Positions 6,304 to 8,053 of a stretch of DNA of 64,000 nucleotides are shown one piece after another (within the stretch, counting starts at the first letter, position 1; every line of letters starts with the position of its first letter). The notes under the pieces are model-generated. The model saw only the letters and a list, made by a program, of their open reading frames with translations. It was not told where the DNA came from and did not search any database. The position numbers were made by a program, and so were the translations under genes. Source of the stretch: a virus; the IMG/VR virus record IMGVR_UViG_3300018080_000099, positions 64,001 through 128,000 of that record. One strand, written 5' to 3'.

Positions 6304-6639
6304 ATGAATTGGTCCAGCCATAAACCGAAATCAACGGGGTGGTATTGGAAGTTGTCCAAGTGGGATGAACACCCCGAAGTTGTGTATGTGTTCAGGGTTG
6401 GTGGTCAACTATCAACATCTCCATGCGGGGGGTTGCCCGCCAAAACATTGTGGGCTGGTCCAATTCCAGAACCAGAGGAAGCGGTTGCCACAGGCACACA
6501 ACAGCGCCATGCTGCGAGGGCTAAAGCCAAACCGTGCCCGACATGTAATGGTGAGAAGTACATTGGGTTTGGCATTGATGGTGAAGGTGGCGATGAGGTC
6601 TGCCCGACTTGTAGGGGTGCTGGCACGGCTTCTGCATAG
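6304..6639 (+). CDS. small protein with a DnaJ-like CxxCxGxG zinc-finger pair
   Basis: CPTCNGEKY and CPTCRGAG at the C-terminus; start chosen at the ATG preceded by GGAG. Confidence 0.45.
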   Translation: MNWSSHKPKSTGWYWKLSKWDEHPEVVYVFRVGGQLSTSPCGGLPAKTLWAGPIPEPEEAVATGTQQRHAARAKAKPCPTCNGEKYIGFGIDGEGGDEVCPTCRGAGTASA

Positions 6640-6681
6640 CGCAAAACGTTGGAGTGCCATAAAATTTTTCTTGGAGGTTAT

Positions 6682-6939
6682 ATGCGCAGTGACTTGCGTG
6701 AATATTTTCTCAGTAAAGCAGGCGTCTATTCAGATGAGCAGTACATTGCCTTCTTGGAGGGTAATGTCACTGCGCTTGAAATTAAGGTAAAAAACTTAAC
6801 AGCATCCAACACACAAAGCACGGCTATCACCCAAATTGCCGAACAGATGGAGCAGTGGGGACACGAAGATGTACCAGTAGATGTTGATTTACTTCGTTCC
6901 CGTATTGCGGATTGGGTTCGGCAACTTCGTGCTTTGTGA
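6682..6939 (+). CDS. small protein, paralog family A (C-terminal ..NTQSTAITQIA..WVRQLRAL)
   Basis: C-terminal block nearly identical to the 7547..7786 product; RBS GGAGG. Confidence 0.5.
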   Translation: MRSDLREYFLSKAGVYSDEQYIAFLEGNVTALEIKVKNLTASNTQSTAITQIAEQMEQWGHEDVPVDVDLLRSRIADWVRQLRAL

Positions 6940-6969
6940 GAACGTTGTGTGAAATTTAAGGAGGCTTTT

Positions 6970-7233
6970 ATGTTATATAATTTGACCCACTATAAATTCG
7001 TGAGGTCGCATCATCATCCTGAATGTACTGGTTGTAACGACGGCTTAATTCCGTGGCAAGGCGGGGAGTGGGTCAAATTTGAGGAAGCTAATGAAGCCTC
7101 CTTAAAAAACACACAACAACTGCAAGCCAAAATTGCCGCTCTTGCTGATTATGTCGAGTCTCATAACGATATAAGTGCTGGTACGTGGGAGTATATTGTT
7201 AAGTCGATGCGGCAACTATCGGCTGTGCAGTGA
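6970..7233 (+). CDS. small hypothetical protein
   Basis: RBS AAGGAGG; member of the tandem small-gene array with the repeated downstream AACGTTG motif. Confidence 0.45.
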   Translation: MLYNLTHYKFVRSHHHPECTGCNDGLIPWQGGEWVKFEEANEASLKNTQQLQAKIAALADYVESHNDISAGTWEYIVKSMRQLSAVQ

Positions 7234-7275
7234 ACGTTGTGTGCAAGTTTTGGCAATTTTACATAGGAGGCACGA

Positions 7276-7476
7276 ATGAATGAGCCTGTAGTTTATACGG
7301 ATATTGAGCAAGCGTGTTGTGTTATGGATAGTGTGTGCGATAGTCCGATGTTACCACCGAAATTGTATAGTTGGCAAACCGAAGCGTGGAAGTACATTCG
7401 TGCTTACATAAAGGAATGCCAAAACCAACACACAACACAGCAAGGGATGCCAGAAACGCAGGATACTAAAGATTGA
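7276..7476 (+). CDS. small hypothetical protein
   Basis: 66 aa, RBS AGGAGG. Confidence 0.45.
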   Translation: MNEPVVYTDIEQACCVMDSVCDSPMLPPKLYSWQTEAWKYIRAYIKECQNQHTTQQGMPETQDTKD

Positions 7477-7546
7477 TTTTATTATAGGCGTTTCCAGCAC
7501 CCGTTGCTGGAACGTTGGTGTAAATAAATTTTTCAAGGATATTATA

Positions 7547-7786
7547 ATGGATTTAATCAAACTTATTGACCAGAATGTGGAGTGTGTTGCTACACCAAAC
7601 GGTAAATATTTGAAACGTAGCGAGGTTTTTGATGCGGTGGAAAAATTTACATCCACCAACATACAAAGCACGGCTATCGCCCAAATTGCCGATGGTATGG
7701 AGAATCTTATTAATGAATTTCCAAACGAACAATTTATTCATACAGATTGGGTTAAAGGGTGGATTCGGCAACTTCGTGCTTTGTGA
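7547..7786 (+). CDS. small protein, paralog family A
   Basis: C-terminal NIQSTAIAQIADGMEN...WIRQLRAL matches the 6682..6939 product. Confidence 0.5.
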   Translation: MDLIKLIDQNVECVATPNGKYLKRSEVFDAVEKFTSTNIQSTAIAQIADGMENLINEFPNEQFIHTDWVKGWIRQLRAL

Positions 7787-7837
7787 AACGTTGGTGTAAA
7801 TATTTAATTCACAATTTTAAAGTTTTTGGGAGGTTTT

Positions 7838-8053
7838 ATGTTTAAACCGGGAGATATTGTTGTAACGAAAGCTCAGCTAGACGAAACGTATGGTATTAAA
7901 AAGTTCACCGTGGTTGATGTTCTTACTTCTGCTAATAGTGAATGTCTCATACTTAATTTGTCGTTTCTTGATAGCATGGGTGTTCCAAGGAGTGTGTTCG
8001 CCGATGCGCTTGGTTTCTGCCTTGCTCCCAAAAAAGAAGAAAAGGAATCTTAA
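7838..8053 (+). CDS. small hypothetical protein
   Basis: RBS GGGAGG then ATG (MFKPGDIVV). Confidence 0.4.
   Translation: MFKPGDIVVTKAQLDETYGIKKFTVVDVLTSANSECLILNLSFLDSMGVPRSVFADALGFCLAPKKEEKES

Follow-up and report, generated by a model that had tools for sequence, protein, structure and literature searches.

Large phages carry hundreds of tiny genes of unclear function, many of them thought to serve host takeover or anti-defence, and the route by which such genes are gained, lost and expressed is an open question. A stretch of 64 kb from the IMG/VR virus record IMGVR_UViG_3300018080_000099 (positions 64,001 to 128,000 of that record), part of a 264-kb metagenomic source contig, raises this question in a compact form. 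The whole stretch is called the window here, and coordinates are those of the window unless another contig is named. It holds a tandem array of small open reading frames (ORFs) with a short motif that recurs after their stop codons. What does this motif mark? We report that it is the left arm of a long-range inverted repeat with arms that covary from unit to unit, that a second family of helices alternates with the first, and that the same scaffold is found on about 50 metagenomic and IMG/VR phage contigs. This structural finding, with its anatomy, covariation and conservation, is secure. Literature searches for a prior description of the two-helix scaffold found no match and, as far as searched, it is undescribed.

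The small ORFs and the recurring motif

The array consists of six co-oriented small ORFs in tandem (O1 to O6, all on the + strand), each with a Shine-Dalgarno (SD) sequence and an ATG. The initial annotation had recognised the tandem arrangement and counted five. O1 (111 aa, 6304-6639) has two CxxC pairs in its C-terminal part, which is zinc-ribbon-like. O2 (85 aa, P0002, 6682-6939) carries the C-terminal module ...NTQSTAITQIAE...RQLRAL*, and O3 (87 aa, 6970-7233) the module ...AKIAALAD...RQLSAVQ*, a weaker relative of the one found in O2 and O5; the related contigs L006/L007 carry an orthologue of O3 (P0020). O4 (66 aa, 7276-7476) is followed by O5 (79 aa, P0001, 7547-7786), which is a paralogue of O2 only from the right arm of its repeat onward, and by O6 (71 aa, 7838-8053), which lies entirely within its repeat. 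The homology of O2 and O5 is confined to the C-terminal 50 aa (44% identity, E=1e-10) and their N-termini are unrelated. The two had been described as clear paralogues with a shared C-terminus. This holds for the 50 residues, and the signal coincides in part with the strands of the helices described below: the apparent protein motifs NTQSTAI and RQLRAL* overlap the strands R plus a and a', respectively. Some of the protein motifs of small ORFs (NTQS..., ...RQLRAL) should therefore be read with caution, as imprints of nucleic-acid structure.

None of the O1-O6 proteins matched a Pfam or PHROG family, and the array DNA had no similarity to isolated phages. One large neighbouring ORF had no protein match among isolated phages, and protein-pattern scans of IMG/VR for NadR and for O2 returned no close relatives. 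When a profile of O2, O3 and O5 was used, 22 small metagenome proteins were matched; their contigs bear ACGTTG at the same position, with complementary partners.

The motif AACGTTG is present in exactly five copies in the window when both strands are searched. The copies are at 6645, 6941, 7233, 7511 and 7787, all on the + strand, and lie 6, 2, 0, 35 and 1 nt past a stop codon, respectively. A sixth, variant copy, GACGTTG, is found at 6269. By a simple calculation, the chance that all five random sites fall within 1.15 kb is about 5e-7. The recurrence after stop codons had been seen before with four copies, the one at 6645 having been missed. No intrinsic terminators were found between the array genes, and a promoter scan of a 3.6-kb region showed neither a sigma-70 promoter nor a terminator at the motifs. 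With no terminator or promoter inside the array, the two arms of each repeat would be co-transcribed.

The motif was originally described as about 20 nt around a palindromic AACGTT. Such a sequence is present, but as one strand of a bipartite long-range inverted repeat, and the palindrome is not what is kept: the relatives conserve AC-GTTG, not AACGTT. The palindrome, or a restriction site, was rejected as the functional core since the leading extra A is not conserved in them. AACGTT occurs 7 times in the window compared with 16 expected, and 5 of the 7 copies are in the array. Outside it there are 2 copies in about 63 kb (about 16 are expected for the whole window), and the window encodes three DNA methyltransferase ORFs (27721-28659, 28656-29447 and 45762-46697). 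The scarcity of AACGTT may reflect restriction-site avoidance.

The motif has a distant complementary partner

In a search for repeats, each motif turned out to form the left arm (L) of an inverted repeat. In the window, its right arm (R) lies 130-280 nt downstream, either in the next ORF or, in the last case, just past O6. Minimum-free-energy folds reproduced the long-range L:R stems, and the L:R duplex energies were far below those of shuffled controls (L3/R3, -33.4 kcal/mol, z=-6.5). A second helix family (A) was observed, formed between the bases that directly follow R(n) and those that directly precede L(n+1). Domains closed by stems thus follow one another from about 6222 to 8141, with LR and A in alternation (LR1, A1, LR2, A2 and onward).

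To define the repeat, units were collected by pattern scans of IMG/VR, one genome collection and a metagenome collection and filtered with a structure scanner. The 14-mer scans of IMG/VR gave mostly chance matches and were informative only after this filtering, and the scan of the genome collection gave one real locus, a contig of a metagenome-assembled genome from Lac Pavin sediment. The resulting family has 135 units, 113 of them non-redundant, from 53 locus-strands on about 50 metagenomic and IMG/VR phage contigs; a single IMG/VR contig of 213 kb carries at least 12 units within 14 kb. A strict scan that was strand-symmetric, allowed Watson-Crick pairs only and used a fixed register was run over 6.25 Mb of mostly unrelated contigs. 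It returned 47 units, 46 of which were in family loci, and at each locus they were on a single strand. Rfam 15 gave no match at E<=1 for window positions 5500-9000 and none at E<=0.1 for the family loci L030, L006, L180 and L349, both strands being searched.

The register of the LR helix reads, on the left arm, 5' A-C, G1-U-U-G4-N5-9, A10-A11 and U12-N13-21, and on the right arm N-A12', C11'-A10', N9'-5'-C-A-A-C and A 3'. The helix thus consists of AC-GTTG with 4-5 variable bp, an AA/CA bubble and then at least 11 variable bp. The search was built on GTTG and CAAC, so that 113/113 units have both. A C precedes GTTG in 102/113 units and an A follows CAAC in 110/113, neither of which was a search criterion. 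The AA/CA bubble was near-invariant in the first set of units, where it was not a criterion either.

All four bases are used at LR positions 5-7 and 12-21, and these positions are paired in 90-100% of units. When 31 units were examined as mini-constructs, 90.2% of cells were paired compared with 56.6% after shuffling, and both sides changed in 17 of 22 pairs. The covariation score was 0.817 against 0.177, with a maximum of 0.22 in slid controls. In the upper stem, cognate arms paired at 10.2 of 11 positions and non-cognate arms at 4.65. Since the units were found by complementarity, the pairing result is partly built in. The initial annotation had named, as an explanation that would empty the repeats of meaning, that they are simply RBS-proximal sequence (RBS, ribosome-binding site). 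This objection fails, because the distance from motif to start codon varies between 27 and 63 nt and the covarying partner lies far downstream.

The LR span is 133-470 nt and, in the 113 units, it always holds a start region and is never empty. Past position 24 the pairing is unit-specific and usually runs over the SD and AUG: for positions 25-66, cognate arms gave -19.9 and non-cognate arms -13.8 kcal/mol, with cognate arms favoured in 103/113 units (p=1e-17). The top of the helix is 12 nt beyond the start codon in the median unit. The R arm is found in all three reading frames, with 1-54 codons remaining, or just past the stop.

The second helix, A, begins at the base after CAAC and stops 3-4 nt short of the next GTTG. 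It has 20-28 bp, and the segments it closes are 40-221 nt long, with a median of 87. Helix A is also unit-specific, with -24.4 kcal/mol for cognate and -12.1 kcal/mol for non-cognate arms (78/79). The first single-base bulge is on the 3' arm, a', in 52 of 79 helices (G 30, A 14, T 5, C 3), usually 6-7 bp from the base. The same two-helix scaffold is carried by unrelated ORFs.

The chain of domains in the window

The chain starts directly past the stop codon of the ORF at 5832-6215, on the + strand like all elements that follow. Here, an orphan R-type core, GCACACAACA (6222-6230), precedes a short hairpin, A0, which reaches to L1 (6222-6267 in total); no cognate L arm of this core was found upstream. 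LR1 (6270-6503) is formed by L at 6270-6297 (ACGTTGTGCGCC...) and R at about 6464-6503 (...GGCACACAACA). It is irregular, without the AA/CA bubble, and encloses the SD, start and N-terminal part of O1. The loop of A1 (6503-6643, arms 6503-6534 and 6615-6643) codes for the zinc-ribbon part of O1, and the A1 arm sequence recurs as a 63-nt hairpin in L180 (5424-5488).

LR2 (6646-6810, L 6646-6671, R 6787-6810) is degenerate: its upper stem is rich in AU and contains A.C mismatches, and the helix has a bulge of 1 nt. It is followed by A2 (6811-6939), whose arms at 6811-6835 and 6911-6939 (ACAAAGCACGG and TCGTGCTTTGTGA) include the O2 stop codon on the 3' side. In LR3 (6942-7118), the L arm at 6942-6969 reads ACGTTGTGTG-AA-ATTTAAGGAGGCTTTT and includes the SD; R is at 7092-7118, and an inner extension pairs 6979-6991 with 7067-7079. 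A3 (7118-7232, arms 7118-7147 and 7202-7232) has E=-28.6 and z=-4.1. LR4 (7234-7437, L 7234-7261, R 7411-7437) folds such that the SD/AUG at 7268-7278 is paired with about 7393-7403.

A4 (7438-7509) has its arms at 7438-7459 and 7488-7509 and the O4 stop in its loop. The CCAGCA/TGCTGG hairpin (7495-7510) that had been pointed out before the third of the four copies then counted is real; it is the tip of this longer helix. LR5 (7512-7661, L 7512-7535, R 7639-7661) is followed by A5 (7661-7786, arms 7661-7691 and 7757-7786, AAAGCACG and CGTGCTTT). In LR6 (7788-8068), L is at 7788-7807 and R at 8050-8068, just past the O6 stop, and the fold pairs the SD GGGAGG with CTCCC near 8026. The array ends at 8072-8141 with the A6 hairpin (8072-8108) and a degenerate L-like sequence, CCGTTGGCTGA..., that forms a local hairpin only (8113-8141).

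Elsewhere in the window, a GTTG...CAACA inverted repeat with a 13-bp lower stem is found at about 51494-51609 on the - strand, within the ORF 50965-51714 (-). Its geometry is unlike that of the family and it is possibly a chance match.

Module exchange ends at the cores

Comparison with the related phage contigs showed that the motif is kept and that module swaps end at it. A 638-bp block with 99.8% identity is shared by L006 (5973-6610) and L007 (1006-1643), whose samples are related. Its limits fall exactly on an ACGTTG at one end and on the CAACA of the following unit at the other, with unrelated sequence on either side. The A4 module of the window is 96.6% identical to L062 between two cores, whereas the flanking LR modules are unrelated, and the LR5 module is also present in L002 and L003, beside different A modules. 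Overall, 37% of the ends of high-scoring segment pairs were within 10 nt of a core compared with 8% for random positions, in a small sample.

The cargo is heterogeneous. In L030, an LR unit tightly flanks a complete 71-aa CxxC...CxxC ORF (5419-5634) that belongs to no Pfam family. This very widely travelled small gene has 72-75% nucleotide identity to hypothetical genes of Yersinia T4-like phages (phiR1-RT g095) and of Streptococcus phages. The blocks that end at cores show that the cores are module boundaries. The cassette-like layout proposed in the initial annotation is borne out in that the motif is conserved in related phage contigs and sits at the breakpoints of recent module exchange. 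For the diversity-generating array offered there as the other option, nothing indicated an active mechanism of the diversity-generating retroelement type.

Two local variants were seen. In L007, ACGTTG-CTCGG-(A/G)CGTTG is present twice (995-1011 and 699-720), giving tandem cores 11 nt apart, which are either a local junction variant or a scar of exchange. The array of L030 opens directly after a clear intrinsic terminator (3811-3842; GGTTGCC...GGCAACC TTTTGTTT), and its first L arm has TA in place of AC before GTTG.

The helices fold better on the complementary strand

The mismatches in the helices were counted in the gene-strand sense. The variable LR core had 1560 Watson-Crick pairs, 12 G.U, 50 A.C and 73 others, and the invariant LR mismatches, C0.A0' and A11.C11', turn into wobbles when the complementary strand is considered. 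When one representative for each of 62 clusters of helix A was taken, 158 A.C and 58 G.U were found; 51 clusters leaned to A.C and 3 to G.U (p=3e-12). The A.C excess persisted in short non-coding hairpins (66 versus 15). This excess of A.C over G.U in the gene-strand sense makes the complementary strand the better-folding one. In line with this, the antisense duplex was more stable in 71/79 A helices and in 36/38 LR cores, and the bias was absent in non-cognate controls. Sense-specific G.U pairs over the SD/AUG in the LR extension were also considered, but non-cognate controls had them equally, so they are compositional.

The pairing appears to be selected on the gene-complementary strand, as single-stranded DNA or as antisense RNA; alternatively, wobbles are disfavoured altogether. 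The strand bias counts against a simple sense-mRNA structure, though the position of L and the coverage of the SD/AUG would suit one.

A proposed reading of the modules as structure-delimited cassettes

Our preferred reading, held tentatively, takes the helices as integron-like boundaries of cassettes, defined by structure, with the masking of ribosome-binding sites in the mRNA as an additional effect. An LR module extends from the AC-GTTG right after the previous stop to CAAC-A and encloses the SD, the start and the first part or the whole of an ORF, and an A module is a bulged hairpin of attC-like or expanded size that encloses the remainder of the ORF and its stop codon. Single-stranded DNA, probably of the bottom strand, would form hairpins at the inverted repeats during replication or recombination. 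The hairpins would be recognised by their shape, with crossover within the GTT/AAC microhomology at the helix bases, and the folded arms would then be what directs the module exchanges. Integration would have split a single hairpin into L(n) and R(n), in the way that an integrated integron cassette has GTTRRRY on one side and RYYYAAC on the other. On this model, both kinds of module, LR and A, could be picked up and reassorted. The complementarity covers the SD/AUG of most units, and in the polycistronic mRNA it probably damps or couples translation as well, which would be a secondary or co-opted effect. Somewhat more doubtful is the stronger proposal of a new structure-specific cassette system, in which the small genes sit in the loops of a split 'giant attC' (LR plus A) and are captured, excised and reassorted at GTT/AAC by a putative enzyme; it would provide these uncultivated large phages with an integron-like means to turn over their stock of small genes.

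In attC sites, only the AAC/GTT triplets are conserved; they serve as the strand-transfer microhomology, and recognition is based on structure with a preference for one strand (PMC5027507). Clusters of attC sites without an integrase (CALINs) occur in virulent phages (PMC9892861), and attC hairpins influence the translation of downstream cassettes (PMC8876359). The array resembles such sites in several respects. Co-oriented promoterless small ORFs alternate with imperfect hairpins, and the A segments are compatible in size with the 57-141 nt of attC. The structure is kept while the sequence varies, and the GTT/AAC triplets alone are fixed, at the exchange points. A GTT core 5' of the cassette is cognate to an AAC core 3' of the ORF, which is the topology of L(n) and R(n). 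In both, the strands differ in foldability, ORFs often end inside a hairpin, and hairpins can hinder the translation of the next gene.

The details of the sites differ from attC, and most of these differences weigh against the cassette reading. The consensus RYYYAAC/GTTRRRY was matched by 0/42 R arms and 0/42 L arms. The unpaired spacer of the array is 0-1 x 3-4 nt instead of the 5-6 nt per arm of attC, and its common bulge sits on the arm closer to the downstream core, opposite to the arm that bulges in attC when the ORF is taken as reference. An attC site has two or three extrahelical bases on one arm, the first and last of them 6 bp apart; two same-arm bulges at this distance were present in only 11/79 A helices. 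The LR complementarity extends 20-45 bp beyond the 'R box' with a conserved AA/CA bubble, a feature absent from classical cassettes. In addition, exchange of the array modules takes place at both cores, an ORF commonly spans the hairpin from end to end, the elements are on large lytic-type phage contigs, and neither IntI nor another recombinase was found in the ORFs and as a recurrent neighbour in the loci searched (see below). Judged by bulge position, the attC-bottom-like strand would be the gene strand; judged by stability, it is the gene-complementary strand that folds better. A classical attC R box made of R(n) and L(n+1) was rejected, since 1.88 of 4 variable positions paired compared with 3.33 of 4 for the cognate L(n):R(n).

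Several further points also argue against the cassette reading. In the 64 kb covered of the 264-kb contig, no integrase was present among 39 window ORFs of at least 150 aa searched against Pfam or among ten large ORFs searched against PHROGs (seven shared with the Pfam set), and in 47 family loci no large protein or recombinase recurs beside the arrays. The LR and A modules reassort independently, so that crossovers are needed at both cores. Hairpins with loops of 100-400 nt form more readily in RNA than in DNA. L is always in the 5' untranslated region (UTR) and the LR extension covers the SD/AUG, exactly as a translational role predicts. Finally, random recombination together with selection that keeps cognate arms together can also yield precise-looking breakpoints.

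L385 has an ORF resembling an IS607-type serine recombinase (272-913; MerR-like N-terminus and resolvase-like core, as read from the sequence) and a TnpB-sized ORF of 371 aa (1214-2326). The recombinase-like ORF is about 4 kb from the array and has homologues in L400 (3961-4563 and 5536-6150). As it was seen at two loci only, it is probably an unrelated insertion. Terminal inverted repeats of a transposon or of a miniature inverted-repeat transposable element were rejected, as the arms are unit-specific and not family-specific and contain the SD and coding sequence.

If the modules are recombination substrates, they would represent an integron-like system outside bacteria with a new type of site, and possibly a structure-specific recombination tool. 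If they act in RNA, the translation of phage small genes would be locked genome-wide by an unusually stereotyped structure. In both cases the signature, made up of AC-GTTG-N5-AA...CA-N5-CAAC-A with arms that covary and of the alternating bulged hairpin, is widespread and easy to search for; it marks cassettes and exchange points and gives a handle to find and delimit such genes in metagenomes.

Alternative explanations

The rival with the best standing, though also a doubtful one, is a purely cis-regulatory function in the mRNA. Here, helix LR would lock the 30S landing zone and the SD/AUG of a cistron against a sequence within its own ORF, and a ribosome terminating upstream would unzip the base of the helix, resulting in translational coupling; as a second option, only nascent transcripts would be translated. 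Helix A would sequester the 3' part such that both ends of the cistron are paired and stabilised, the cores and the bubble would form a protein-binding site, and the modular breakpoints would arise solely by loss of the recombinants that separate cognate arms. The placement of the arms fits this well. L is always in the 5' UTR with the start codon 27-63 nt downstream, and no LR unit is empty. The upstream stop is at most 6 nt from the L arm in 45/88 units, and in the window AACGTTG is 0-6 nt past a stop in all copies but that at 7511. The pairing over the SD/AUG is unit-specific, and in the window the SD or AUG of O3, O4 and O6 is paired. The arms would be co-transcribed, the array being free of internal terminators and promoters, and the occurrence of R in all three frames indicates a constraint at the nucleotide level. 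The wobble statistics, however, are opposite to those of a sense-RNA helix, with A.C exceeding G.U by about 3:1 in helix A and G.U in the LR core no commoner than random mismatches, and the sense bias of the LR extension is purely compositional. Moreover, the SD is transcribed 130-470 nt before its partner, so that the first ribosomes would not be blocked, and the model gives no evident task to helix A or to the conserved GTT/AAC cores.

Known systems of this kind are the long-distance RBS occlusion and translational coupling of MS2 and the fbi/tac 5'-3' pairing of hok-type toxin mRNAs. Like these, the array pairs the SD/AUG with a distant sequence and closes a small cistron by pairing of its ends, and opening by an upstream ribosome is plausible from the proximity of the stop. 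The MS2 and hok structures are single and idiosyncratic, whereas the array geometry is stereotyped for dozens of unrelated genes and its wobble pattern disfavours the sense strand.

Punctuation of the transcript for RNA processing or stability is unlikely. In this case, a double-strand-specific endoribonuclease, from the host (RNase III) or from the phage, would cleave the bubble or the A-L linker, giving stem-protected cistrons as in the T7 early region, or a shut-off of early mRNA. The geometry is compatible, with 8-9 bp, a 2x2 bubble and at least 11 bp in LR and with 20-28 bp and bulges in helix A; the helices are nearly all Watson-Crick and the unpaired nucleotides at the helix bases are conserved. 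The short A hairpins between genes are like T7 RNase III sites, which are local intergenic hairpins, and the repeated stem-bubble-stem of about two helical turns punctuates a polycistronic early region as they do. In contrast to T7, one of the array helix families spans coding sequence. R and a lie inside ORFs that are translated through them, with CxxC motifs and C-terminal modules downstream, and double-strand cuts would destroy most of the genes. No RNase III gene was seen in the window, and the strand bias disfavours any reading in sense RNA.

The strand bias is accommodated by an antisense RNA, in which a leftward transcript would fold into stem-closed units with loops antisense to the gene start regions. 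On this strand, C.A and A.C become U.G and G.U, which gives helix A about 12% G.U, typical of functional RNAs, and the antisense duplex energies are lower (LR core 36/38, helix A 71/79) in a cognate-specific manner. We consider it nevertheless improbable, and a little more so than cleavage by RNase III: there is no sign of leftward transcription, the whole 0-34 kb block consists of + strand genes, no promoter-like site is placed to drive a leftward transcript, and Rfam gave no match on either strand.

Splicing, ribosome hopping or RtcB joining across the stems was rejected, as the upstream stop is outside the stem at a variable distance and joining of R(n) to L(n+1) gives early stops.

The promoter early stem-loop (PeSL) type of mobile regulatory cassette has a stem-loop and a sigma-70 early promoter before each small gene and is shuffled by homologous recombination. 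PeSLs are repeats immediately upstream of the SD/start of small ORFans in hyperplastic regions, tied to insertions, deletions and replacements (PMC2839356, PMC4122927). The array elements likewise precede the SD/start of small ORFs in a plastic region, often with a hairpin just upstream and with breakpoints at the elements. A PeSL, however, is a local stem-loop with a sigma-70 promoter and about 50 conserved nt, whereas the array is promoterless, has 5-6 conserved nt and takes its definition from a partner arm that covaries at a distance of 130-470 nt, together with the other family of helices. A partner arm far downstream is not a PeSL trait, and 5-6 conserved nt are too few for homologous recombination. 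No -35/N17/-10 promoter is present at any of the six motifs (4 such sites in the 3.6-kb region compared with 7.0 expected), and any -10-like hexamer would fall on or past the SD. This explanation is very improbable.

Least probable of all is tandem paralogy alone, in which the repeats would be leftovers of a recent small-gene duplication or operator sites of a repressor like stoperators: O2, O3 and O5 do share a C-terminal module, but the scaffold is also found with unrelated ORFs, covariation links the arms of each unit, about 50 contigs of differing surrounding sequence keep the cores, and a single DNA-binding protein cannot account for unit-specific complementary arms. Both the promoter and the paralogy-only explanations are effectively excluded.

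A further comparison is with the start-associated sequences (SAS) and extended SAS (ESAS) of Cluster K mycobacteriophages. The SAS includes the SD, and the ESAS has sequence-conserved inverted repeats of 17 bp that are 4-13 bp apart (PMC3203893). As in the array, these are conserved, orientation-specific repeats at the starts of some small genes, about half of them with imperfect inverted repeats, and their function is unsettled (PMC3203893). They differ from the array in having neither unit-specific covariation nor a long-range partner.

Genomic surroundings of the array

The window codes for accessory functions of large phages, among them RtcB, NadR, PnuC, radical SAM enzymes, methyltransferases and HNH endonucleases. 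The array is flanked by a PnuC nicotinamide-mononucleotide transporter (4160-4720, +) and a NadR-like adenylyltransferase/kinase (8903-9880, +), which suggests a phage NAD-salvage pair. A set related to RNA repair and translation comprises an RtcB RNA ligase (30860-32209, +), a protein with DUF2828 and DUF7788 that is read as TROVE/vWA-like (36988-38460, -), a PTH2 peptidyl-tRNA hydrolase (56533-57039, -), a SpoU methylase (29836-30465, +), YqeY (24909-25391, +) and an HD_4 protein (26019-26636, +). The ORF at 18199-19212 (+) combines SBP_bac_3, Ion_trans_2 and Lig_chan, that is, a solute-binding part and an ion-channel pore like those of a prokaryotic glutamate-receptor channel, which is unusual cargo for a phage. 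Five HNH endonuclease ORFs were found (21503-22000 and 24047-24577 on the + strand; 43237-43878, 55616-56209 and 60925-61536 on the - strand), none of them in or beside the array. At about 33-35 kb the gene strand flips from + to -, with a sign reversal of the GC skew near 34 kb.

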